A stretch of 13,151 bases of DNA from Candidatus Thorarchaeota archaeon (GCA_016840855.1 JAEORO010000102.1:1-13151); one strand, 5' to 3'; shown: positions 2-12,702, numbered from the stretch's first letter. Notes: a model not told the origin generated them from the letters alone. Translations and numbers: made by a program.

Positions 2-1585
2 ATAGACAATAGCTACAGCGACACTTACAACACCAGCACCAACAATAATGAGAAGCATTAGAGGTGAGGGGGGGATTATGGGTACACGGTATGGCTGGGC
101 GTATCGATCCACACTGCCAGCAAATCCTGGAATTATATATTCTCCTGGAGCATTGAGGTTGCTCCAGTAGTTGCCAAGAGAAATCCCGTCATCCCAGATG
201 TTGTCTGACCCATCGTCGTTAGCGTTCTGGGTGTTGTCATAAAGAATATTGTAGTACAGATTGTTTGAAGACGAATCTGAAGCAATCTCGATTCCAATAT
301 TGTTTCCAAAAACAGTATTGTTATGGATTGAACCGTCATTGCCATCGATGTATATCCCAGAATCGAAATTCTCGATGACATTGTTGTAGAGGGTTACACC
401 GTTCGACTGTAGGTTGATGCCATGATTGTCTTGCGACTTCGAGCCTTTCATCGTGTTGGTGGAAACCAACAGGTCTGTGTTGTTCTCACGGATATACAGC
501 CCATATTCAGGACAATCAGTGAGTGTGTTGTTGTAAACCAATGAGCCATTACAGTTGTAAGCAACTTGGATGTGGCCATCGGTTATAGTATTTGAGCTGA
601 CTTCTGACGCGGGAGAGTCAATAAGACTAATACTACCACTGTTGAAAGCGCAGTTAGTAATCGCGAGGCCTTCCTCAACAGATTGCCCGTCACAATTCAC
701 AGACTCAAACAAACAGTCCTGAATTGTGATGTCAAGTGTTCCTGAAAAACCCCTGAAGTCAACTCCAAACCATCCAACTCCTGAAGGACCTGAAGCAATG
801 AAATCGCAATCCGTGATGATGATACCTTGACATTCCTGAATTATAATTCCAGTTATATTGTTGATATTGAATATGTTATCCTGGACAGTTCCCAGTTGGG
901 ATTCACGTAGAGTTAGCCATTCATTATATTCCTCGATGTTGAATGTGTTTCCACTGACTGAGAATCCAGCAGACATCCATACTGCCATTTGTGTACCTGA
1001 GAATGTATTCCCAAGGACGTTTAGACCTGATACTTCCTCAAAGAGTACCTCACCAGCATTGTCAAAGTTCGAGTCTACAAAACTGACATCATCAACTTGG
1101 AAAGCGTAGATTCCAAACGGGGTATTGTAGATTTCAGTAGAAGTAATCAGATAATCACTACCTTCTAAAGAAACACCCCACGTATGGTTCATAATCTCGC
1201 ACGTATCAATAACACCATGACCACCTAGAAGATTGATGCCTGTGCCAGTGAATGTATTATAAACCCGACAGTTTCGAATTTCATAATACACAGTCACAGA
1301 GGCACCAATCCAGATGCCGTCACCACCCAAGGTTCCTTCTATGTCATAGTTTTCAATTCGATATGGATCGCTCTCACTTCCATTACCAGGGAACCCAAGT
1401 GGATGCGATGCAAATTCCGAATCAGAAGTGATGGAAATTGGTGACACAGATGTCAATTGAGAGAGAACTGGACCTTCGTTGGCAATTATGAATGATGTCG
1501 AATTATCTGGCATGGTAGGATTGGTCAACATCATCAAGAAAAGAAGTGCCAATGTACTGTATGTCAAGTAATTGTAAAACCTCAT
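2..1585 (-). CDS. Right-handed parallel beta-helix (NosD/PbH1-repeat) cell-surface protein with N-terminal signal-like segment and C-terminal TM anchor; 3' end runs off the window
   Basis: Hand translation from ATG at 1585 gives 528 codons with no stop: MRFYNYLTYSTLALLFLMMLTNP...SPISITSDSEF...GFPGNGSESDPYRIENYDI...(G-I-x-I / N-N-T-[ILV] repeats)...NANDDGSDNIWDDGISLGNYWSN...GSVDRYAQP...PLMLLIIVGAGVVSVAVAIVY. The WDDG..GNYWS..DRY cap is typical of archaeal NosD-type proteins. Absent from the ORF track, presumably because no stop lies in the window. Confidence 0.9.
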   Translation of the reverse strand, partial: MRFYNYLTYSTLALLFLMMLTNPTMPDNSTSFIIANEGPVLSQLTSVSPISITSDSEFASHPLGFPGNGSESDPYRIENYDIEGTLGGDGIWIGASVTVYYEIRNCRVYNTFTGTGINLLGGHGVIDTCEIMNHTWGVSLEGSDYLITSTEIYNTPFGIYAFQVDDVSFVDSNFDNAGEVLFEEVSGLNVLGNTFSGTQMAVWMSAGFSVSGNTFNIEEYNEWLTLRESQLGTVQDNIFNINNITGIIIQECQGIIITDCDFIASGPSGVGWFGVDFRGFSGTLDITIQDCLFESVNCDGQSVEEGLAITNCAFNSGSISLIDSPASEVSSNTITDGHIQVAYNCNGSLVYNNTLTDCPEYGLYIRENNTDLLVSTNTMKGSKSQDNHGINLQSNGVTLYNNVIENFDSGIYIDGNDGSIHNNTVFGNNIGIEIASDSSSNNLYYNILYDNTQNANDDGSDNIWDDGISLGNYWSNLNAPGEYIIPGFAGSVDRYAQPYRVPIIPPSPLMLLIIVGAGVVSVAVAIVY

Positions 1586-1697: not shown

Positions 1698-2609
1698 CTA
1701 TTTGCTTTCTTTCACCATTTGGACGAGTTTCTCTCGTCGATAGCTGGAGAAATACTTGTGATGCCCACTAATCAAGGCCTTTACGCTTGTAACATGTTTA
1801 TTCTGCCTGATTGAACGAATGGTGTCAACAAGTTCAGTGATATCATCAGCTACGAGGAGGGCATAAATCACAGGCTCTGATGCAGAACGGTAAGTTTCCC
1901 TATGTTTGAGCGGATAGTGTGTTTCAAGCCATTCAGCAATCTCCGCTTGGGTGACTGCTTTCTCATCCCACAGAATTCTAATAATAAATGGCAGACTTGT
2001 AGCAGCCCCTAGTTCAACTAATGATACAAAACGAATCGCATTGTTTTCCTCTAGCTCACCAATCAACCTCCTGACTCTTCGAGCAGTCAGTCCGGTTTTC
2101 TGAGCAATATCAACTATAGGAAGTCTTGGATCTTCAAGTAGTGGTCCTAACACACGAAGATGGGTCTTGGTGAGGTTCATCTTTGTCCCCCACGTTCCGA
2201 TGATGGTGTGCAATTCAGCAGTCTCAACGCTATCAAGAGTTCTAAGAAATGTACCAATTTCCTGTAATTCTTGAGGGCTGTTATATTCAGCTACCAGAGC
2301 GTAGACTCCGTCGGTATATGATGAAGCAGCCATGATATATTTGTTCGACCCAATCGCGTCGACCATCTCAACTTCATCTCTAGAACCATCAGTTGATAAA
2401 AGACCAAAGAGCAAGCTTGTGCCAGTCATAGCTGGAGACATGATAATCGAATAGCCCGAGATTACCCCTGATTCTTCCATATTCAGAATACGACGTCGAA
2501 TAGCATTGGCGGATATGCCATATTTGCGAGAGAGTTCTTGGTAACTAATTCTACAGTTATGTTGTAAATCAGTCACTATCTTCTTGTCCAGTTCATCCAA
2601 AGGCTGCAC
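1698..2609 (-). CDS. Lrp/AsnC-family transcriptional regulator with two tandem HTH+RAM-like units
   Basis: First wHTH: LDELDKKIVTDLQHNCRISYQELSRKYGISANAIRRRILNMEESGVISGY. Second: LTKTHLRVLGPLLEDPRLPIVDIAQKTGLTARRVRRLIGELEENNAIRF. Each is followed by a beta-alpha-beta-type segment. The ORF track starts at 2624. I prefer the in-frame GTG at 2609 because it lies about 25 nt from the TATA box at 2634-2641. Confidence 0.9.
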   Translation of the reverse strand: MQPLDELDKKIVTDLQHNCRISYQELSRKYGISANAIRRRILNMEESGVISGYSIIMSPAMTGTSLLFGLLSTDGSRDEVEMVDAIGSNKYIMAASSYTDGVYALVAEYNSPQELQEIGTFLRTLDSVETAELHTIIGTWGTKMNLTKTHLRVLGPLLEDPRLPIVDIAQKTGLTARRVRRLIGELEENNAIRFVSLVELGAATSLPFIIRILWDEKAVTQAEIAEWLETHYPLKHRETYRSASEPVIYALLVADDITELVDTIRSIRQNKHVTSVKALISGHHKYFSSYRREKLVQMVKESK

Positions 2610-2633
2610 ATCCAAGCTCAACAATCGTGTGGG

Positions 2634-2704: not shown

Positions 2705-3955
2705 TTAAACACTGACTGTCTGGCGAACATGACTCAGAATCACATCGCCGGTGGCGAATCGATTAGCCTCTTGTTCTTGTGCGTTATCAGGCACTGTTTC
2801 AATCGAGAGATTATGATTGATAGCTTTGAATGCTTTATCAATCTCAGATATGCGAGAGCTTGATACATATCGTTTGAAACCCATAGCCGCGAGTATCTTG
2901 TTGCCATAGCTTGTTAACCAAAGAGGGATTAAATCGATTTTACCAAAATCATCCAAAAGAGTCACTTCCTGCAACTCTTGATTTCTGCGATTTAGGACAG
3001 ACGGAATCAGAATACTTCCAGGAGTTGTAGAGAGGGCATCCATATCGAAGAAGAGTGTATTTCCCCCTCGTTTGAGTTGAGATTTCAATAAATCCACTAC
3101 CTTAGGGTATAATTGCTGAATGCCTTTATTGAAGCTGCCTCTAGTTGGCAGTAACTTCACAATGTCACGGACTCGACCATCGTAACATGCAAGTTCTGGA
3201 ATTCCAAACGCTTCCAGAAGAACTCGCTGAGCAGCGAACTCGACACCAATCTTTAATTTCTTAGATAGTGCAGTTAGATGTTCTTTTACAACAGCCCAAC
3301 CAAACTCTTTCACAAGTTCTCGATACGACTTTGGCGAGTATTCTATCTCAGTATTCTTATCATATAGCCACTCTGGAACAGTGCCAGCACGTCGTTCTGT
3401 GAAGGAGGCAGAGAGCAGGTCATTGAGGTACGGAGGCACATTGCTCATGAAAGAATCGATGATAATCTTTGGCCGTGGACTGTGTCGGGTTAGTTGAATC
3501 ACAGCAGTTGTTAACTGGTCTAGTTCGTAAAGTGGTGCGATATTCACCTTTTGAAACATGTTCTCTTGTAGATAGAGATACCTCAAATCTTTACACCCTG
3601 CGAGGGGTGTGAGATCGATTTCCTTCAAGATATTGTGTGAGATATCAAGATGCCTTAATCGGTTACAGTGTTGGAGTGGTGTTAAATCCACAGTTTCTAA
3701 TCTATTCACCGCAATGCTCACATACTCGAGGTCATTACAATTTGCCAACGGACTCAAATCTACCTTTGTTAGCCAATTCGAGCTTATATCAATACGAACT
3801 GGATTGTCAATCTCTTCAACCCATTTCAGGTTTGATTTTAGTTGGTTACGTGTACTTCCGTAATCTGGAGTGACTGTAAAAATGAAGTGGTAGTTTTTTA
3901 TCGGTGCTTTTGCACAACGAACAACGAGCAATAATCTATCTGACAAGTTACCCAC
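2705..3955 (-). CDS. Leucine-rich repeat protein (about four 24-aa LRRs) with an uncharacterised C-terminal domain
   Basis: Repeats LTKVDLSPLANCNDLEYVSIAVNR / LETVDLTPLQHCNRLRHLDISHNI / LKEIDLTPLAGCKDLRYLYLQENM / FQKVNIAPLYELDQL match LxxLxLxxNxL. GTG start is preceded by AGGAG. Confidence 0.88.
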   Translation of the reverse strand: MGNLSDRLLLVVRCAKAPIKNYHFIFTVTPDYGSTRNQLKSNLKWVEEIDNPVRIDISSNWLTKVDLSPLANCNDLEYVSIAVNRLETVDLTPLQHCNRLRHLDISHNILKEIDLTPLAGCKDLRYLYLQENMFQKVNIAPLYELDQLTTAVIQLTRHSPRPKIIIDSFMSNVPPYLNDLLSASFTERRAGTVPEWLYDKNTEIEYSPKSYRELVKEFGWAVVKEHLTALSKKLKIGVEFAAQRVLLEAFGIPELACYDGRVRDIVKLLPTRGSFNKGIQQLYPKVVDLLKSQLKRGGNTLFFDMDALSTTPGSILIPSVLNRRNQELQEVTLLDDFGKIDLIPLWLTSYGNKILAAMGFKRYVSSSRISEIDKAFKAINHNLSIETVPDNAQEQEANRFATGDVILSHVRQTVSV

Positions 3956-5254: not shown

Positions 5255-6304
5255 ATGTGGTGGAAGAGGAGTGGACAAAAGAAAAGACCCGGACCTGGGT
5301 GTGCAGTATGGGAGATAACCCTAGCTTGCAATCTGAATTGTATCCACTGTGGTTCTGCGGCAGGTAAAGCGCGCAAAGATGAACTGTCAACTGAAGAAGC
5401 ACTTCAGCTGTGTGAAGATCTCAAGAAAATTGAGTGCAGAGGAGTCGCGCTTATGGGTGGGGAACCATTATTGCGTCCAGATTGGATCACCATTTCCCAA
5501 AGAGTTCATGACTTGGAAATGGAACTCTCGATTATCACAAATGGATGGCTTGGAAAAAATGATGGCGTCACTCAACAGATTGTGGCACTATCGCCAGAGT
5601 GCATCACTGTGAGTCTTGATGGAGGAACATCATCCATTCATGATATGATTAGAGGCGTGCATGGTTCCTTCGAGCGCGCAACGTATGCTATTGACATGTA
5701 TGCAGGGCTTGGTTTGCCAACAACTGTAATCACAACAGTACACAAGTTGAATCTGAAAGAATTGACCAAGATACGTGATTTCTTGATGGGAAAAGGAGTT
5801 GCATGGCAAATCCAGATGGCTACTCCTCATGGTAGACTTGAACATAAACATGTACTATCTCAGGATGAATTCTACTCTGTTGCCTTGTTCATTGCAGCGA
5901 CTAGGAAACTACATTCCAAGGAATTAATGGTAGCCGGAGCTCACGATATGGGATATTACTCCACCATTCTCCCTGACCTTCAGGTCAATCAATGGCAAGG
6001 TTGTCAGGCTGGAATCGGTACTCTTGGAATACAAAGCAACGGTAACATCAAAGGGTGTCTCGCACTTCCTGAGCAGTTTATCGAGGGGAACATGAGGGAT
6101 CGGTCTCTTAGAGAAATTTGGTATGATGAAAACTCGTTCAAGTATGCACGTTATGTGAAGATGTCAGACATGAGAGCTCACTGCGCACAGTGTGAGTTTA
6201 AGAAACAATGTAAGGGAGGATGTTCAGCAGTATCTTCAACGATGGGCAAAGGTCTTCATCAAGACCCGTATTGTGTTCGTCATATTGAACAAATGATAAA
6301 ATGA
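5255..6304 (+). CDS. Radical SAM/SPASM-domain peptide/protein maturase, probably PlpX-type splicease clade
   Basis: CxxxCxxC in AVWEITLACNLNCIHCGSAAG; GGEP; VSLDG..HDMIRG..GSF. SPASM cysteines in WQGCQAGIGTLGIQSNGNIKGCLALP...CAQCEFKKQCKGGC...DPYC. AWQIQ and GYY motifs resemble PlpX-like enzymes as I recall them. The rSAM/SPASM call is firm; the clade assignment is about 0.65. Confidence 0.9.
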   Translation: MWWKRSGQKKRPGPGCAVWEITLACNLNCIHCGSAAGKARKDELSTEEALQLCEDLKKIECRGVALMGGEPLLRPDWITISQRVHDLEMELSIITNGWLGKNDGVTQQIVALSPECITVSLDGGTSSIHDMIRGVHGSFERATYAIDMYAGLGLPTTVITTVHKLNLKELTKIRDFLMGKGVAWQIQMATPHGRLEHKHVLSQDEFYSVALFIAATRKLHSKELMVAGAHDMGYYSTILPDLQVNQWQGCQAGIGTLGIQSNGNIKGCLALPEQFIEGNMRDRSLREIWYDENSFKYARYVKMSDMRAHCAQCEFKKQCKGGCSAVSSTMGKGLHQDPYCVRHIEQMIK

Positions 6305-6365
6305 TACAATGTAAAAATCAAAGAGCTTATTGCGTTTCTATTCATATTAGTATTGGGTGAAGTAG

Positions 6366-6749
6366 TTGAGATGGATTGGTTTAGGAGACATAGGATTCAG
6401 GTACCTACGCATTCGTCATGCTCTCCCAAAAAGCCTGAAACTAAAATTCGATAGACTTCTGCCTAGGCTGATTCCGCTAAAAGAGCAGCTGGCTGAAATT
6501 GAGATTCTTGGGAGAGGAATAGGTTTGGATGCAAGAGAAATTCATGCCGCCGCTACTCTTCTAGCCGACAATGAGCAACCAGCAAAACGTTGGTTGACGC
6601 CTCTAACAGTTTTCGTAATGATTGTAGTGATTATCATCTTGAGCTTTGTAATTCTTATTATTACAGGAATTTATACAAACCCGCCTACAATTTATGGTGC
6701 CGGGCTACGCTACGGAAGTATAAAACCCAAAGATTTCGTCTCATATTAG
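6366..6749 (+). CDS. Small single-TM protein, paralog 1; putative radical SAM substrate with C-terminal YG motifs
   Basis: TTG start with GGTGA SD at 6356-6360. Basic N-terminal domain, TM about W76-I102 and tail YTNPPTIYGAGLRYGSIKPKDFVSY. Aligns without gaps to paralog 2 over residues 1-62 (21 identities by hand count). Confidence 0.8.
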   Translation: MRWIGLGDIGFRYLRIRHALPKSLKLKFDRLLPRLIPLKEQLAEIEILGRGIGLDAREIHAAATLLADNEQPAKRWLTPLTVFVMIVVIIILSFVILIITGIYTNPPTIYGAGLRYGSIKPKDFVSY

Positions 6750-6770
6750 TTCAATCCAGGTGGTGTAGAA

Positions 6771-7175
6771 TTGCAAGGGATTAGTATGCAAATGATTTGG
6801 TTTGGTATCAAACGATTGGAAAGTCATCTACCTATTAGACTCTATGAGGGGATGCGACAGATAGTAAGGAAAATTAAGCCTACTGAATTGCAGCTAAGCA
6901 AAATCGAACTGCTAGGCAAGAATATTGGACTTGAGAGAACCGAGGTTTTGGCAGCTCTCGATTCACCCTTAGGCGCTCCTGGTGTTGGTGGTAAACAAAG
7001 ATTGACTCTATTCATTTCAATAGTCGCAGTTTTCGTCATCGCAATAATCAGTGTCCTTCTTACGTGGCTTGTTGTCGATCCAGAAACCTTTCCCATACCG
7101 ACTTATGTTCCGGGGTCACTCTATGGGACCATTTCTCCACGGGACTTCAATCTCGCAAAGACACCAAGTTTCTAG
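6771..7175 (+). CDS. Small single-TM protein, paralog 2; putative radical SAM substrate with C-terminal YG motif
   Basis: TTG start with AGGTGGTG SD at 6758-6765. TM about L78-V102 and tail DPETFPIPTYVPGSLYGTISPRDFNLAKTPSF. Homologous to 6366..6749. Confidence 0.8.
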   Translation: MQGISMQMIWFGIKRLESHLPIRLYEGMRQIVRKIKPTELQLSKIELLGKNIGLERTEVLAALDSPLGAPGVGGKQRLTLFISIVAVFVIAIISVLLTWLVVDPETFPIPTYVPGSLYGTISPRDFNLAKTPSF

Positions 7176-7189
7176 TGGTGAGTTAATAG

Positions 7190-8482
7190 TTGAAGCTCAA
7201 TATTGGATGCGGTCTTGAATACAAGAAAGGCTACATCAATATTGATGCATTTGACAGGTCTGTTGCAGACCAAGTAATGTCAGCACTCAATCTTGAGTTT
7301 GAAGATAACTCATTCACCCAAGTTGACTGTGTGCATGTCCTTGAACATCTTGGTGCTGGAAAATCAATCTACGCTCTAGCTGAGGTTTTTCGCGTTTTGA
7401 GGCCAAATGGGCTGTTTTTTCTCGAAACTCCAGATTTGAAGAGTTCATTCAAAAGTTTCCTAAAAGGAAATGAAGACCAACGGAAGTATGTGATGAATTG
7501 GATATATGGACTTGATATGCCGGGCATGTCGCACAAGTATGGCTTCCCAGAGGAACTCCTGGAAAGAATGCTACAAGAATCTGGTTTCGTTGACACTGTC
7601 ATCAAACGGGTGAACACAGATTCAATGTATCCCTCACTTCGAGTGACTTGCAGAAAGTCGTCATCAAAGTGGCATCAGTTCTTTACACACTTTCGAAAAA
7701 AACTCGTTGAAATGAACTTGGTGGATCTCAATGACCAAGTAGATGTGATTGACAAGGAGAGTATACTACAGGACCTATTCGCGAATTCATTGACATTATG
7801 TGATATCAAAGCGATTTTTGAATTGACATCAACAAGCAGTCCAAAGTTAGGTAAATTATACCTAGAAACCTCTATTGATGAAAATCTAGTTACTGAGAAG
7901 ATGGTTCAGAATTATCTATCAATTTTAGAAGAATTGGATCTCTTAGAATTCCCAAAGGTAATGATACATCTATTTCGAGAGATGCCGGTTATGCCTGGAC
8001 AACAAGATGAAACATTTGATGCTGTCAAATCAATGTGTAGTCAATCAATCAAGAAAATTCTCTCGAAAGAGGAAGACACTATTGTTGAACTAAGAAACGT
8101 ATCCAAAAAAATAGAGAGTGAAGTACAAACGGATATTTTCTCCAAGGCCGTACTGAACTCAATTTCACAAGAACAGCTCGCTTTAGGAGCTAAGGCATTT
8201 GCGCATGCTCAATTAGAGGAAGCAATCACTCGGTACAGAGATGCTGTTCGATATAATCGGGACAACATTTTGGCATACTGGAATCTAGCTCGATTACGTG
8301 TGTTGAACAACATGTTAGAAAAAGGCAAAAAATGCTACAATATAACTAAGACATTGATTTCATCGATGCAACTTAAAATTCAGAGGCCTTTAGTTAGAAA
8401 GCTTGAAACTGAAATTAACCAGATAGCGAAAGGAAACCAACGACATATCGAACAACCAGTCTTATCACTTCTTAGGCATTAA
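7190..8482 (+). CDS. Class I SAM-dependent methyltransferase-domain protein with C-terminal TPR-like repeats
   Basis: N-terminal KLNIGCG..KGYINID..FEDNSF..HVLEHL..EVFRVLRPNG..ETPD (Methyltransf_11-like). C-terminal LALGAKAFAHAQLEEAITRYRDAVRYNRDNILAYWNLARL is TPR-like. TTG start with GGTGA SD at 7177-7181. Confidence 0.8.
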   Translation: MKLNIGCGLEYKKGYINIDAFDRSVADQVMSALNLEFEDNSFTQVDCVHVLEHLGAGKSIYALAEVFRVLRPNGLFFLETPDLKSSFKSFLKGNEDQRKYVMNWIYGLDMPGMSHKYGFPEELLERMLQESGFVDTVIKRVNTDSMYPSLRVTCRKSSSKWHQFFTHFRKKLVEMNLVDLNDQVDVIDKESILQDLFANSLTLCDIKAIFELTSTSSPKLGKLYLETSIDENLVTEKMVQNYLSILEELDLLEFPKVMIHLFREMPVMPGQQDETFDAVKSMCSQSIKKILSKEEDTIVELRNVSKKIESEVQTDIFSKAVLNSISQEQLALGAKAFAHAQLEEAITRYRDAVRYNRDNILAYWNLARLRVLNNMLEKGKKCYNITKTLISSMQLKIQRPLVRKLETEINQIAKGNQRHIEQPVLSLLRH

Positions 8483-8522: not shown

Positions 8523-9614
8523 ATGACTCATCTTCACACTGAACTCTGTGATATTGTTGGCATTAAACATCCCATACTGCAGGGAGGGATGGGACCCTAC
8601 AAGACTGAGCACCTCGCAATTGCGGTAGCGAATGCAGGAGCTCTGGGGATTATCAGTTGTATTGGTATGGCAGCCACACTCCTGCCTGAAGCCGCACCAA
8701 TCGATGCAAGAAGATTGTTTGGAACAGACCCACCAGCAGTAATCCTTCAGAAGTCAATTGAGAATGTAACAAAGAAAACCCGTTACTCAGGAGGCGTCTT
8801 TGGCGTCAACGTTCCTGTGGCTGCAGAGTTCACCCTTGCATCTAAGATGTTTATTGAGCAGACGATAGAGTCATGTAAATCCGATTCAGATACTGAGCGT
8901 TCGCTGCGTGTTGTTGTTACATCAGCAGGGAACCCAAAACCTTGGTCAGTCCTCAAAGATGAGGGTTTCATTTGGGTGCACGTGACTCCATCAGTATATC
9001 ATGCGAAAAAAGCTGAAGCCGCAGGAGCTGATGTTGTTGTTGCGTCAGGCCATGAGGGTGGAGCGCATGTTTCGTGGGATCCTGTTCATTCTATGGTTCT
9101 TGTTCCCGCAGTAGCAAGAGCAGTGAAGACACCAGTTGTCGGAGCAGGCGGATTCTGTGATGGAGCAACCCTTGCTGCTGCATTGTGCATGGGAGCTGTT
9201 GGAGTTCAAATGGGCACTCGTTTTATTGCTACTAAGGAAAGTGACTTTGAGCCCATGTGGAAACAAGCGATTCTGAGCAGGGAAGAACGCCAGACCCTGG
9301 TGGGGCGAGGTCTCTTTGGACCAATGAGATTTCTACGTAACAAGAGGGCTGAGGAAATTGTGATACAGACCTTAGAGGATCTACCAAAGTTCTATCTAGG
9401 TGAGCCTCTTGATTCAAATGAGAAGATTCTGGAACTTGAACAAACGGGATTCGATAATCTCCTTGATGCTAAGGAGGAAACAGCCTTAATGTTTGGAGGA
9501 GAAGTAGTGGGCCGTATCCAAGATTTACCAACCACAGCAGAACTCATAGACAGTATTATTCACGAGGCGGCAGAAGTACTCAGAAGTGTACCTAAGTTTG
9601 TGATTAACAAGTGA
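8523..9614 (+). CDS. Nitronate monooxygenase / FabK-like FMN-dependent oxidoreductase
   Basis: HPILQGGMG, LAIAVANAGALGII, FGVNV, AKKAEAAGADVVVASGHEGGAH, VVGAGGFCDG and MGAVGVQMGTRFIATKES. Confidence 0.9.
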   Translation: MTHLHTELCDIVGIKHPILQGGMGPYKTEHLAIAVANAGALGIISCIGMAATLLPEAAPIDARRLFGTDPPAVILQKSIENVTKKTRYSGGVFGVNVPVAAEFTLASKMFIEQTIESCKSDSDTERSLRVVVTSAGNPKPWSVLKDEGFIWVHVTPSVYHAKKAEAAGADVVVASGHEGGAHVSWDPVHSMVLVPAVARAVKTPVVGAGGFCDGATLAAALCMGAVGVQMGTRFIATKESDFEPMWKQAILSREERQTLVGRGLFGPMRFLRNKRAEEIVIQTLEDLPKFYLGEPLDSNEKILELEQTGFDNLLDAKEETALMFGGEVVGRIQDLPTTAELIDSIIHEAAEVLRSVPKFVINK

Positions 9615-9684
9615 AAAAAGGCAGTGCGAGGAAATAAAGGGACGGGAGTCCTCCGTATGGGAGGATATTGAACGCGATGGAGAG

Positions 9685-10866
9685 ATGGGAATGGTCTGGT
9701 GGTTCTATGTTCCAAACATTATTTTTGGTGAAGATGCGCTGAGTGAGCTTGAGCGGATAAATGGGAGTAAAGCATTCATTGTTACTGATAAAGTAATCAA
9801 TAGTCTTGGACTTGCAGAGAAAGTCTGTCGAGTATTTACAGAGAAACAGTGGGAAGCTGCGATTTGGGATGGTGTCGAGCCCGATCCTAAGGTTTCTACA
9901 GTCAAGGCAGCCGCTGAAGCAATCAAAAGATTCAGCGCAGATTGGATAATAGCTGTCGGTGGCGGAAGCGTCATGGATACTGCAAAAGCTGCATGGGTCC
10001 TGTACGAGAAGCCAGATGTGGAACTTCACGCCCTGACACCGTTCGATGAATTAGGTCTTCGAACGAAAGCAAAGCTGGTGTGTATACCAACCACCACCGG
10101 GACAGGGTCGGAAGCAACTAAAGCTATTGTAATTCGAGATGATGAAACAGGAAGAAAATTCGCAACAATAAATCCTGAATTAACTCCTGATATCGCGATA
10201 CTAGATCCAGAGTTTGTGGTTGGACTACCGAAGAACCTCACAGCATATACCGGGATGGATGCATTGACACATGCGGTGGAGGGATTTGTTTCAGTCTGGA
10301 AAAATGATTTCTCTGATGGTTGTTCGCTTCAAGCAGTAAAGATGATCTTCGAGTGGCTTCCAAAATCTGTTGAAGACTTGTCAGACCTTGAAGCAAGAGA
10401 AAAGATGCTGATTGCTGCTTGCCTAGCAGGCATGTCATTTGGGAACTCACAAGCTGCACTTGCACATTCACTAGGGCATAGTATGGGTTCTGTGTTAAGA
10501 ACTCATCATGGCATGTCAGTTGGCATGGCATTACCCTACACAATTGAGTTCAACTGTATCGATAACGAGGACACAGCTAAGCTATATGCTCAACTTGCAA
10601 GAATGGTTGGAGTTTCCAGTAAGAAACCTATAGATACAGGGATGCAGTTTGCGCAAGCAATCAGGGAGTTTATGAGAAAGATTGGTAGTCCAACAAGCTT
10701 CAAGGAGGCAGGTATTAAGAAGAAAGATTTCAATGCAGGGCTTGAGAACATGGTTGATTTTGCGATGATGGACACTAGCTTAACAATGAATCCGCGTAAT
10801 ACTGACAGTGACGAAATTCGGAAGATGTACAAATACATGTATGATGGAACAGTTATTGATTTCTAG
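9685..10866 (+). CDS. Iron-containing alcohol dehydrogenase
   Basis: VEPDP, AVGGGSVMDTAK, IPTTTGTGSE, GMDALTHAVE, AHSLGH and HHG metal/NAD motifs. The start may be ATG 9691 (GGAG at 9679-9682). Confidence 0.93.
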   Translation: MGMVWWFYVPNIIFGEDALSELERINGSKAFIVTDKVINSLGLAEKVCRVFTEKQWEAAIWDGVEPDPKVSTVKAAAEAIKRFSADWIIAVGGGSVMDTAKAAWVLYEKPDVELHALTPFDELGLRTKAKLVCIPTTTGTGSEATKAIVIRDDETGRKFATINPELTPDIAILDPEFVVGLPKNLTAYTGMDALTHAVEGFVSVWKNDFSDGCSLQAVKMIFEWLPKSVEDLSDLEAREKMLIAACLAGMSFGNSQAALAHSLGHSMGSVLRTHHGMSVGMALPYTIEFNCIDNEDTAKLYAQLARMVGVSSKKPIDTGMQFAQAIREFMRKIGSPTSFKEAGIKKKDFNAGLENMVDFAMMDTSLTMNPRNTDSDEIRKMYKYMYDGTVIDF

Positions 10867-10881
10867 AGGGAGGACATCGAT

Positions 10882-12702
10882 GTGCATGGTTATCGAGGGA
10901 AAATACTGCGAGTCGACTTGAGTACAGGATCAACATCTGTGATATCACTTGATGAAAAACTGTTACGACAGTTCATTGGTGGTGCAGGATTGGGAGCACG
11001 TCTACTGTATGACGTGATTGACACAGACACGGACCCACTTGGTCCAGATAATCCACTCCTCTATCTCACAGGACCATTATGCGGCACGATGGCACCAACT
11101 GGTAGCAAGTCTACATTCTGTTCAAAATCTCCAAAGACAGGGATTTTGGGATATAGTACTGTGGGAGGTCATTTAGGTGCAGACTTAAAGTTTGCAGGTT
11201 ATGATGGAATCATCTTCACTGGTACAGCGGAAAAACCATCTTACCTTCTTGTTGATAACTCAGATGTGGAAATCAGGGATGCCAAGCATCTATGGGGAAA
11301 AGACACGATATATGTCTGGGAGGCTTTAAAGAAAGAAACAGGCTATAGGAATGCAGGGATAGCGAGGATTGGCGTAGCGGGTGAGAACCTAGTTAAGTAT
11401 GCTAATATCATCGTAGATCATCACAGGGCAGCGGGACGAACAGGACAAGGCGCAGTCATGGGGTCCAAGAAACTCAAGGCAATTGTCATTCATGGGACTG
11501 ACCGAAAGGTACCCGTCGCTCATGAGGATGAATTAAGCAAGTATGTTTCTGAGCTAAACGAGGACAAAAAGGAAGACCCCACCTTTAGAATGTATTCTGA
11601 TCTCGGAACTGCAGGATTTACTGATATGGCTAGTATGATGTGGGGTTCACTCCCTGCAGGCTATTACACAGTTTCTGATTTTGATACATACAATCTAAGT
11701 GGAACTTCTGTTCGTGAAACGATTCTAGTTGGCAAGTCAGCATGTTATAGATGCCCTATTGGATGTGGAAGAGTAGTTGAGATTCCTGAGGGCAAGTACA
11801 AGATGGATAAGTATGCTGGCCCTGAGCTCGAAGTGACTGGGACAATGGGTTCACTACTGCTTAACAACAATGTTGAGTCAGTGGCATTTGCAAACAAAGT
11901 TCTGAATATGCTTGGGATTGACACAATATCTGGAGGGAACACCATTGCATTTGCATATTATCTCTTCAAGGAAGGAAAGATTACTGCCGATGACCTTGAT
12001 GGAATTTCGCCTGAATGGGGTGAGGTTGAACCAGGAATTGCTCTCGCTGAAAAGATAGCTAGACGTGAAGGGATTGGAGACCTGATGGCAGAAGGGGCTC
12101 TACAATTCGGTGAGAAGTTTGGAGTTCCTAATCTTGCTGTTCAGGTGAATGGTCTGGAGTTGCCGCAGCATGATCCAAGAGGGTTCTCGGGACATGCCAT
12201 TGGTTATGCAACATCACCTCGTGGAGCATGTCACATGAGCGCAGACATGTACAACGTTCAGATGGGGCAACCAAACGAAGCTTTCAACATTGAGAGTGAG
12301 GATCGGTTTGCTAACGAGGCGGATTTAGTTGCTAGACTCCAAGATTTTCGTGCGTTGACGAACTCAGCAGTCACCTGCAATTTCTATCCATTGGATGGAG
12401 ACCAGTTACTGAAGATTCTACAATTAGCAATTGGGTGGGATATGGAGATTGAGGAATTGGTTCAGACGGGGGAGAGAATCTTCACTATGATGCGACTATT
12501 GAATCTCAAACTTGGTTATGACCCAAAGAATGAAACATTGCCTGAACTTATTTTAAAACCGCTTGAGGGACCCACTGAGGGGCACGTTCCAGACATTGAG
12601 GCACAGTTGAAGAAATGGTATGAATATCGAGGATGGGACAGAAAGACAGGAAAGCCTCCTCGGAACAAGCTTGAGAAACTTGGTCTTGGAGACCTTACCT
12701 AA
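10882..12702 (+). CDS. aor: Aldehyde:ferredoxin oxidoreductase family (tungstopterin/4Fe-4S) enzyme
   Basis: GYRGKILRVDL, DPLGPDNPL, KSPKTG, AAGRTGQGAVMGSKKLKAI, CYRCPIGC, GPELE, GIDTIS, HDPRG, RGACH and VTCNF. GTG start with GGAGG SD at 10869-10873. Confidence 0.93.
   Translation: MHGYRGKILRVDLSTGSTSVISLDEKLLRQFIGGAGLGARLLYDVIDTDTDPLGPDNPLLYLTGPLCGTMAPTGSKSTFCSKSPKTGILGYSTVGGHLGADLKFAGYDGIIFTGTAEKPSYLLVDNSDVEIRDAKHLWGKDTIYVWEALKKETGYRNAGIARIGVAGENLVKYANIIVDHHRAAGRTGQGAVMGSKKLKAIVIHGTDRKVPVAHEDELSKYVSELNEDKKEDPTFRMYSDLGTAGFTDMASMMWGSLPAGYYTVSDFDTYNLSGTSVRETILVGKSACYRCPIGCGRVVEIPEGKYKMDKYAGPELEVTGTMGSLLLNNNVESVAFANKVLNMLGIDTISGGNTIAFAYYLFKEGKITADDLDGISPEWGEVEPGIALAEKIARREGIGDLMAEGALQFGEKFGVPNLAVQVNGLELPQHDPRGFSGHAIGYATSPRGACHMSADMYNVQMGQPNEAFNIESEDRFANEADLVARLQDFRALTNSAVTCNFYPLDGDQLLKILQLAIGWDMEIEELVQTGERIFTMMRLLNLKLGYDPKNETLPELILKPLEGPTEGHVPDIEAQLKKWYEYRGWDRKTGKPPRNKLEKLGLGDLT

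Follow-up and report, generated by a model that had tools for sequence, protein, structure and literature searches.

What does a radical S-adenosylmethionine (SAM) enzyme do beside two small membrane proteins whose tails carry a tyrosine followed by a glycine? The question is raised by four adjacent genes in a 13,151-nucleotide stretch of DNA from a Candidatus Thorarchaeota archaeon (GCA_016840855.1, JAEORO010000102.1:1-13151; "the window" below means this whole stretch), which encode a radical SAM/SPASM enzyme, two small proteins that are paralogs of each other (paralogs 1 and 2), and a methyltransferase. A first-pass annotation of the DNA had proposed an archaeal splicease system. PlpX-type spliceases excise a tyramine equivalent from X-Y-G motifs, leaving an α-keto-β-amino amide. 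Having computed the gene content of the block, the family placement of the enzyme, the co-occurrence of its parts and their predicted docking, we find that the block is a real, conserved enzyme-substrate cassette of the splicease kind, that is, of the ribosomally synthesised and post-translationally modified peptide (RiPP) kind, whose substrates are membrane-anchored or exported and to which a methyltransferase is coupled. The chemistry we assign by analogy: we put the probability of a RiPP-like tail-maturation cassette that works by tyramine splicing at roughly 45%.

The compact, same-strand arrangement proposed for the block was borne out by the coordinates of the open reading frames (ORFs), the four genes being separated by 61, 21 and 14 nt. 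All three TTG starts are preceded, at a distance of 6-9 nt, by a GGTGA-like Shine-Dalgarno motif, consistent with their being internal to a single operon. Two copies of a 17-nt direct repeat lie 15 and 21 nt upstream of the starts of paralog 1 and paralog 2, the second overlapping the stop codon of paralog 1 and the codons just before it; the repeat may be a trace of tandem duplication, or chance. Rfam and tRNA scans found no RNA genes in the window, and the names of the closest homologues support the Asgard (Thorarchaeota) origin that had been suspected from the DNA.

The enzyme motifs quoted in the first-pass annotation are all present in the translated ORF, which contains CAVWEITLACNLNCIHCGSAAG, AWQIQ, GYY, WQGCQAGIGTLGIQSNGNIKGC and PYC. 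The radical SAM motif CxxxCxxC corresponds to C25, C29 and C32, and a full seven-cysteine SPASM domain can be read further along (C250, G-x4-C268, C310-x2-C313-x5-C319-x3-C323, C340); the cysteine positions of both domains are invariant in an alignment of the enzyme family (alignment A1). Pfam matches both domains (Radical_SAM, 1.3e-22; SPASM, 9.1e-7), and there is no N-terminal RiPP recognition element domain. Among NCBIfam models, the best was TIGR04103 (PlpX-type; nif11-class peptide radical SAM maturase 3), with 205 bits and an E-value of 1.4e-60, or 28% of its 725-bit cutoff, a value that a genome-level search reproduced, and the second best TIGR03913 (GDL-motif maturase), with 190.5 bits against a cutoff of 591.75. 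The same two models are also the two best for four distant members of the family from Geobacter, Elusimicrobium and Aenigmatarchaeota. Lower scores were obtained for TIGR04053 (154 bits, cutoff 395), AhbD (152.5, cutoff 500), TIGR04133 (148, cutoff 425), MftC (TIGR03962; 147.9, cutoff 265), NirJ2 (140.6), AhbC (120.2, cutoff 650), NirJ (115.4, cutoff 515) and PqqE (TIGR02109; 92.8, cutoff 381), and for other RiPP radical SAM models (WgkB, 131.8; StsB, 117.8; DynA, 67.7 bits). The claim that the enzyme lies nearer to the PlpX type than to PqqE, MftC or AhbC/D therefore stands; membership in TIGR04103 or TIGR03913 does not, both scores falling under one third of their cutoffs. We take TIGR04103 to be the NCBIfam equivalent of the InterPro family IPR026482. 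PlpX itself is assigned to IPR026482 in the sections of PMC11002830 consulted. A search of solved structures with the enzyme returned no splicease, the best match being PqqE (E 8.6e-15).

Phylogeny places the enzyme in the same neighbourhood. A maximum-likelihood tree of 39 rows was computed with references from a plasmid collection that had been named by the Prokaryotic Genome Annotation Pipeline (Nostoc TIGR04103, Azospirillum TIGR03913, Aureibacter DUF1843-associated, MftC, PqqE, TIGR04053 and TIGR04133), AhbD being represented by a protein from a related genome that scores above the AhbD cutoff. The enzyme family forms one clade of archaea and bacteria (support 100/99), which joins the PlpX-type and GDL-type references, TIGR04133 and an Agathobacter enzyme at 92/85, while the AhbD-like, TIGR04053 and MftC rows lie on the opposite side (92/91). 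The approximately unbiased (AU) test rejected a clade with the heme/TIGR04053 rows (difference in log-likelihood 48.2, p 0.0014) and a clade with MftC (38.6, p 0.008); it did not reject one limited to the family and the three splicease-type references (6.1, p 0.24). At 10 of the 88 columns conserved in the family (L23, G33, S34, R40, L56, Q185, Q187, G233, W247 and G267), the residue is common to all three splicease-type references and to at most 2 of the 10 heme/cofactor references; Q185, Q187 and W247 fall in the predicted substrate contact described below. As judged from these comparisons, the enzyme appears to be a close outsider of the splicease families and a member of neither NCBIfam model. 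Among plasmid-borne enzymes, the closest in sequence (34.7% identity) comes from an Agathobacter rectalis plasmid (L089, 3983-6414: radical SAM gene, then a major facilitator superfamily transporter gene); it branches next to the enzyme family at weak support (81/79), and no YG precursor was recognised alongside it.

The first-pass annotation had named in advance a grouping with heme radical SAM enzymes as fatal to its proposal, and no such grouping was found. An enzyme of the AhbC, AhbD or NirJ type, with neighbours that are merely incidental, might have been suspected from the AhbD, NirJ2 and AhbC scores, and from a gene 2.6 kb upstream that encodes a double helix-turn-helix (HTH) protein of the Lrp/AsnC type with a weak NirDL-like HTH match (E 0.005). 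Those scores are, however, far under cutoffs of 500-650 bits, and the upstream gene, which lies on the opposite strand, is Lrp/LysM-like by NCBIfam and not a siroheme decarboxylase. Moreover, the window genome holds only 3 matches to the enzyme, and genomes with a true AhbD carry this enzyme as a separate gene. Together, the model scores, the tree and the AU test rule out, at the level of sequence analysis, the heme-enzyme explanation, whose probability we consider practically nil.

We then turn to the small proteins. Paralogs 1 and 2 are 30% identical (E 2e-15). Their tails read ...GLRYGSIKPKDF... and ...GSLYGTISPRDF..., so that the X-Y-G triplet is R-Y-G in paralog 1 and L-Y-G in paralog 2. 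Neither has a Pfam domain; the 41 public relatives found are likewise without one, and all are unnamed or called "hypothetical". A protein atlas search with paralog 2 gave no usable match. What both paralogs do have is a leader motif, LG...GL...E, and a separate C-terminal core, T-Y-x-P-G-x-X-Y-G-S/T-I-x-P-x-D-F. In an alignment of 22 Asgard proteins (alignment A2), G49 and G53 of the leader and Y112, G115, Y118 and D125 of the core are invariant. Over 22 proteins, the Asgard set shows one hydrophobic segment, which ends 23-40 residues (median 30) before the C-terminus and is flanked by 50 lysines and arginines on its N-terminal side versus 25 on its C-terminal side, suggesting a tail-anchored geometry with the tail outside. 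The leader/core pattern is confined to these two genes in the window genome, beyond chance: when the 72,384 stop-to-stop frames of the 3.36-Mb genome were scanned with hidden Markov models (HMMs) built solely from the loci of other genomes, the core model gave E-values of 1.2e-7 and 1.1e-3 for the two paralogs and 3.1 for the next best frame, and the leader model 3.2e-4 and 0.019 for the paralogs and 1.3 for the next best.

How constant is the tyrosine site across the family? A census of 104 cores was anchored on the aspartate; four further HMM matches had no Tyr seven residues before it. Among the 49 Asgard cores, the residue following the Tyr (+1) is Gly in 36 and Ala in 13, and the residue preceding it (-1) is mainly Leu (21), Arg (16), Asp (6) or Phe (3). 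All 29 Thermoplasmatota cores have Gly at +1, with Tyr (12), Phe (6) and Arg (5) the commonest residues at -1. The 26 bacterial cores, some of them of a Y-Y-T-V-S type, have Tyr (21), Phe (3), His (1) or Ala (1) at +1 and Arg (22) or Lys (4) at -1. The YG tails that had been pointed out are thus real in both window paralogs, which carry X-Tyr-Gly, while the glycine is lost outside the archaea, being found in none of the bacterial cores. A second Tyr, at -6, is present in 49/49 Asgard and 26/26 bacterial cores, and neither the Gly at -3 nor the Asp at +7 varies. In Asgard and bacterial cores, the residue preceding the Tyr is mostly a typical protease P1 residue.

The protein that carries the core differs from one lineage to another. 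The Thermoplasmatota form is a soluble peptide of 59-104 residues, in some cases with three tandem cores. In Elusimicrobia, proteins of about 100 residues combine the leader with a lipobox-like segment, a linker and a Cys-flanked core. In Geobacter and three Deltaproteobacterial loci, the leader is followed by a signal peptide, a domain of the Kunitz/bovine pancreatic trypsin inhibitor type (E 6.2e-15) and the core; in Geobacter hydrogenophilus this protein is encoded at L036, 5365-5964. A leader and a core that are each conserved, in a protein encoded beside the enzyme in one to five tandem copies per locus, are traits of RiPP precursors. One Elusimicrobia ORF (L046, 7771-8061) has the leader and lipobox segment and no terminal Tyr core, and may be a truncated or frameshifted copy.

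We examined whether enzyme and small proteins occur together in two sets, 80 related loci and a sample of 251 Asgard genomes. A protein matching the core HMM is encoded in 55 of the 80 loci, 50 of which also show a leader match; beyond the HMM, diverged cores were recognised by pattern in 10 more loci and leader-bearing ORFs in 2 more. This leaves 13 loci without a motif protein, at least four of which lie at a contig end (L026, L068, L072 and L078). At the genome level, the enzyme is present in 54 of the 251 Asgard genomes, the motif protein in 39 and both in 38; a motif match was seen in only one of the 197 enzyme-negative genomes. Sixteen enzyme-positive genomes were negative with the profile, and 9 of the 10 loci examined among them hold a diverged version with the same leader, 137-192 residues long and with several hydrophobic segments. 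The tails of this version read x-Y-G-(V/T/A)-(F/Y) in seven of nine, in up to five tandem copies, and A-Y-S-V-F in the other two. A lack of co-occurrence with YG proteins, which the first-pass annotation had also named as fatal to its proposal, was seen in neither set; enzyme and YG proteins go tightly together, 38 of the 39 motif-positive genomes having the enzyme: the small proteins are the partners of the enzyme. Distribution is patchy (20 of 89 high-quality Asgard genomes and 3 of 16 other genomes of the genus have the enzyme), and Thermoplasmatota, Elusimicrobia and Geobacter likewise have the cassette of enzyme, methyltransferase and leader-plus-Tyr-core protein; one carrier, Geobacter hydrogenophilus DSM 13691 (L036), is in culture.

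Several loci show variations on this layout. In five Thermoplasmatota loci (L016, L017, L022, L024 and L030), two tandem enzyme copies, which fall in different subclades, are followed by the methyltransferase, with the precursors upstream. Several motif-protein matches in other Asgard genomes (G086:C153:62275-62643 and G051:C3:69001-69369 among them) carry one to three in-frame stops, which are probably due to read-through from one tandem copy into the next or to alternative starts. In Elusimicrobia, a small Ala/Pro-rich lipoprotein is often encoded between methyltransferase and motif protein, and a conserved, secreted-looking protein of about 310-345 residues follows the motif protein (L035, 8499-9428, with similar ORFs in L070, L074, L077 and L080); that of L035 has no Pfam or NCBIfam match.

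Partners need not be substrates: the small proteins could be scaffolds or regulators of an enzyme and a methyltransferase that act on a lipid or another small molecule. The enzyme-methyltransferase pair is indeed the most widely conserved part of the system, a motif protein is missing from the 13 loci mentioned above and from L113, and three Deltaproteobacterial loci have enzyme and motif protein and no methyltransferase, so that the parts are separable. Yet several of the 13 loci end at a contig end, tandem duplication and multi-core repeats are substrate traits, and the nearest named relatives of the enzyme are peptide maturases that adjoin their precursors. The predicted complex points the same way. 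The enzyme (alignment A1) and paralog 2 (alignment A2) were modelled together with SAM and three 4Fe-4S clusters, and the interface score ipSAE, which is the model's own confidence, was 0.89, 0.89 and 0.88 versus 0.00 for the best control; among 157 solved complexes 116 attain this mark, as do 2 among 215 mismatched pairs, a calibration that is only rough for a prediction with custom alignments and ligands, and solved radical SAM/SPASM-peptide complexes of distant relatives exist that may explain part of the score. At least 83% of contacts were common to the runs, with a partner predicted local distance difference test (pLDDT) score of at least 62. In the predicted interface, leader residues 34-64 lie on a conserved helix of the enzyme (residues 204-219, the EEFYSVALF helix), and core residues 111-126 lie against enzyme residues 18, 65, 94, 118, 157, 183-185 and 229. 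These are exactly the two conserved blocks of the small protein, the transmembrane segment being skipped. The prediction supports binding of paralog 2 by the enzyme and, in placing the core in the barrel and the leader on the conserved helix, argues against a non-substrate role, which we regard as improbable.

The fourth gene encodes a methyltransferase (Methyltransf_23, 5.5e-8; Methyltransf_11, 6.7e-8), with a borderline TPR_11 match (3.9e-6; 26.9 bits versus a cutoff of 26.8). A strongly conserved class I SAM-dependent domain (residues 1 to ~170) precedes a helical middle domain and a C-terminal region that is TPR-like (alignment A3); this last region is missing in the Elusimicrobia methyltransferases. 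The AlphaFold2 model is confident (pLDDT 91.1) and was of no use as a clue to the substrate, Foldseek returning only generic class I matches (TM-score on query ~0.27). A homologue is found in 57 of the 80 loci: directly 3’ of the enzyme gene or overlapping it, often by 4 nt, in 27 bacterial loci; 0.6-1.8 kb downstream in 24 archaeal loci, with small genes or a second enzyme copy between; about 3 kb away in three; and upstream or weak in another three. The gene directly 3’ of the methyltransferase in G. hydrogenophilus (L036, 8372-9217) encodes ankyrin repeats behind a signal-like N-terminus.

How does the cassette compare with systems of known chemistry? Type I spliceotides (PlpX/PlpY/PlpA, PcpXYA, Pleurocapsa) resemble it in having a radical SAM/SPASM enzyme with the same signature positions (HCGS, WQIQ, G233 and W247), adjacent and often multiple precursor genes, and a near-C-terminal Tyr-Gly with a variable preceding residue; the Nostoc TIGR04103 locus, for instance, encodes a Nif11 precursor that ends in an L-Y-G core. 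Unlike them, the window enzyme reaches only 205 of 725 bits, forms a separate clade and has an archaeal host, its substrates are membrane-anchored and a methyltransferase is coupled to it; in addition, Pfam and NCBIfam detect in the block neither a PqqD-like helper of the PlpY type nor Nif11/NHLP leaders. A missing helper has a precedent in binary (type II) spliceases, which also work without a Y protein according to the sections of PMC11414181 consulted. In the models given in the same sections, the precursor's own leader α-helix binds the enzyme and the XYG lies in the active centre (PMC11414181). The binary systems (RhaX/RhaA, RcsX, RasX, Rheinheimera) are thus two-component systems in which leader helix and core match the contacts predicted here, so that the relation is one of analogy. 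Spliced ketoamides inhibit Ser/Cys proteases, as stated in the part of PMC11626197 covered, and the products of the binary systems are protease inhibitors (PMC11626197), which fits the Kunitz fusions of the window family. In contrast to the small proteins studied here, their substrates are, in the same partly covered sources, soluble disulfide peptides, and no methyltransferase is described.

GDL-motif maturases (TIGR03913), which occur with tandem DUF1843 peptides, are also among the closest known systems. Their model is the second best for the window enzyme and the best for some members of the family (190-210 bits), they share the tree neighbourhood, and tandem small precursors lie directly upstream of their genes. 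In Aureibacter, a class I methyltransferase even follows the enzyme; we considered it as a relative of the window methyltransferase and rejected it, hhalign giving a probability of 1% and a match of the glycine motif only. The peptides carry P-Y-G, L-Y-A or M-Y-A near the N-terminus, whereas the Tyr site of the window proteins is C-terminal. The window enzyme also remains below the TIGR03913 cutoff, and its small proteins show no DUF1843 match, while the reference peptides do.

MftC/MftA and PqqE/PqqA are further cases of a radical SAM/SPASM enzyme acting on a conserved Tyr of a small ribosomal precursor. PqqA gives rise to pyrroloquinoline quinone and MftA to mycofactocin. By extension, the small proteins here could be sacrificed to make a small molecule or redox cofactor from the Tyr, built by enzyme and methyltransferase and then cut out. 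As in cofactor precursors, the core shows unusually strong conservation between bacteria and archaea; the genes are multi-copy and some precursors have three cores; MftC is among the higher-scoring models; and a gene for a flavin mononucleotide (FMN)-dependent oxidoreductase of the NMO type follows the cassette in the window. Against such a product, the enzyme attains only 147.9 of 265 bits with MftC and 92.8 of 381 with PqqE, and the MftC clade is rejected by the AU test. By Pfam and NCBIfam, the window block is without MftA/MftB, PqqA/PqqD or cofactor-pathway genes, the cassette has no conserved gene for a peptidase or a cofactor-type accessory protein, and synteny of the NMO gene is limited to 8 of the 80 loci, those of close Thorarchaeota relatives. 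The precursors are membrane-anchored, lipoprotein-like or Kunitz-fused, fitting a displayed tail and not a released cofactor, and the system is patchy even within the genus. We therefore hold a cofactor precursor to be very improbable; even when it is added to the heme-enzyme and non-substrate explanations, the three together account for a small part of the probability.

The alternative that carries weight is a different one, namely the same enzyme-substrate cassette in which the Tyr is modified without excision of tyramine: by a C-C or C-O cross-link (to the Tyr at -6 or a nearby side chain), by modification of the β-carbon, or by Cα-Cβ cleavage, with the methyltransferase capping the product. 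All of the enzyme-substrate evidence applies equally to it. Sister radical SAM/SPASM families often differ in chemistry, and this family is a separate clade with about 33% identity to the splicease-type references. The fixed Tyr at -6, Gly at -3 and Asp at +7 suggest a structured product, the residue at +1 is a bulky aromatic in bacteria, and nothing that corresponds to the coupled methyltransferase is reported in the parts of the spliceotide literature consulted. Conversely, the second archaeal core (x-Y-G-V-F) keeps only X-Y-G, without the -6 Tyr or the Asp, which speaks for a reaction at this triplet; the nearest named families are splicease-associated and share the contact residues Q185, Q187 and W247; and models for other chemistries (WgkB, StsB, PqqE and DynA) score lower. 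We consider another Tyr chemistry to be a serious possibility, albeit one at less than even odds.

Tyramine splicing is favoured by several considerations. Firstly, the X-Y-G is all that two archaeal core types of different make-up have in common, which favours splicing at that triplet. Secondly, the Kunitz fusions and the P1-like residues before the Tyr favour a protease-inhibitor context and, with it, splicease chemistry, as does the published inhibition of Ser/Cys proteases by spliced ketoamides. Thirdly, the multi-copy, multi-core habit does so too, as do, fourthly, the nearest relatives of the enzyme and the contact residues it shares with them.

A number of points weigh against it. The enzyme passes no NCBIfam cutoff, and its family stands beside the splicease-type references, not nested in them; the joint node has moderate support and also contains TIGR04133 and the Agathobacter enzyme, which is of unassigned function. 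The splicease-type references number three, none an experimentally tested enzyme, and the literature yielded no confirmation of splicease activity for TIGR03913 members. The low identity and separate clade already cited for the alternative count here as well, as do the qualifications attached to the docking score. At the substrate, the absence of Gly after the Tyr in bacterial cores, its replacement by Ala in Asgard cores and the A-Y-S tails all depart from X-Y-G. A tightly coupled methyltransferase was not found for spliceotide clusters in the parts of the literature consulted. Among the 20 sequencing runs, from 6 studies, that contain the stretch, none is listed as RNA. Lastly, an N-terminus inside the cell puts the tail outside, beyond the reach of the enzyme.

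With tyramine splicing as the working model, we infer the following order of events, topology and role. The enzyme, in the cytoplasm, would bind the short N-terminal leader helix of the small protein on its own conserved EEFYSVALF helix, thread the C-terminal core into its barrel beside the SAM cluster and act on the invariant Tyr. As in its nearest studied relatives, the X-Y-G would lose a tyramine equivalent (C8H9NO, -135 Da) by excision, and X, Arg in paralog 1 and Leu in paralog 2, would become an α-keto-β-amino amide. A second modification would be added by the coupled methyltransferase. Because a tail outside the cell is out of reach, the model needs modification to come before insertion, and since only about 30 residues separate the end of the hydrophobic segment from the C-terminus, the small proteins are probably modified first and inserted post-translationally, in the manner of tail-anchored proteins. 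After insertion, the leader would lie inside and the modified tail would be displayed outside the cell. The leader precedes the membrane anchor or the signal peptide, so that export itself would part leader from product. Displayed in this way, an Arg- or Leu-type ketoamide tail might be a tethered inhibitor of trypsin-like or of chymotrypsin/subtilisin-like proteases. Extended to the whole family, the proposal becomes that archaea (Asgard and Thermoplasmatota) and some anaerobic bacteria splice tyramine from tail-anchored, lipoprotein-type and Kunitz-fused proteins to make a surface-tethered α-ketoamide inhibitor, in which the residue preceding the Tyr determines the P1 side chain (Arg/Lys or Leu/Phe/Tyr); we offer this broader proposal tentatively, as possible and not as probable.

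As to precedent, spliceotides are described as bacterial, soluble peptides in the parts of the literature consulted. According to the sections of a review covered here, a 2022 survey identified enzymes resembling PlpX, with neighbours rich in YG, in 189 bacterial genera, and counted 27 pairs as confirmed (PMC10849128). No description of this cassette family was found in the literature searched, the survey of Scott et al. 2022 (Chem) lying outside that coverage. The system is not mentioned in the parts consulted of PMC13635244, a paper returned for Asgard archaea, RiPPs and radical SAM enzymes. Searches combining Kunitz with radical SAM/SPASM returned nothing, those combining DUF1843 with radical SAM nothing related, and those combining splicease with archaea a single generic sentence of relevance.

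The remaining genes of the window were also inspected (Table 1). Upstream, on the opposite strand, lie a gene for a NosD-like β-helix repeat protein with a hydrophobic C-terminal end and one for a leucine-rich-repeat protein, both unrelated to the cassette as far as seen, together with the double-HTH gene discussed above, which was rejected as a siroheme decarboxylase. Redox genes follow the cassette. The SCP2, PHP and NMO neighbours were considered as parts of the cassette and rejected: they occur in no more than 9, 8 and 8 of the 80 loci, all from close Thorarchaeota relatives, which indicates shared ancestry and not a functional link.

Table 1 Features of the window, and triple-core precursors of other loci in the numbering of each locus
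Feature	Position	Strand	Description
NosD-like gene	2-1585	-	β-helix repeat protein
Double-HTH gene	1698-2624	-	308 aa; two Lrp/AsnC-type HTH halves
Leucine-rich-repeat gene	2705-3955	-	416 aa
Radical SAM/SPASM enzyme	5255-6304	+	349 aa; ATG start; ORF call
17-nt direct repeat	6335-6351 and 6734-6750	+	Copies 82% identical; repeat search
Paralog 1	6366-6749	+	127 aa; TTG start; leader, single transmembrane segment and Tyr-core tail
Paralog 1, leader motif	~6495-6554		HMM, alignment A2, hydropathy
Paralog 1, transmembrane window	6609-6665		HMM, alignment A2, hydropathy
Paralog 1, core	~6690-6737		HMM, alignment A2, hydropathy
Paralog 2	6771-7175	+	134 aa; TTG start; architecture as paralog 1
Paralog 2, predicted leader contact	6870-6962		Residues 34-64
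Paralog 2, transmembrane window	7020-7076		Residues 84-102
Paralog 2, core	7101-7148		Residues 111-126
Methyltransferase	7190-8482	+	430 aa; TTG start; Pfam
Redox genes	8523-12702	+	NMO/FabK-like FMN oxidoreductase, Fe-alcohol dehydrogenase, tungsten-type aldehyde:ferredoxin oxidoreductase
Triple-core precursor, L019	8155-8469		One leader
Triple-core precursor, L021	5537-5869		One leader
Triple-core precursor, L025	7367-7651		One leader

Tyramine splicing is one of very few routes to β-amino acids and electrophilic ketoamides in ribosomal proteins. The cassette would extend it, or a sister Tyr chemistry, to archaea close to the eukaryotic stem, and also to membrane-anchored or exported proteins, with a leader placed before the export signal and with fusions to Kunitz inhibitors. 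If true, these would be, going by the literature examined, the first archaeal proteins that contain β-amino acids and the first integral-membrane spliceotides. The enzyme occurs in about one fifth of the sampled Asgard genomes, and the cultured Geobacter host makes the cassette directly testable. If the chemistry proves to differ, the family would instead be a widespread, well-defined enzyme-substrate pair with a new Tyr modification, which would be equally useful to enzymologists.

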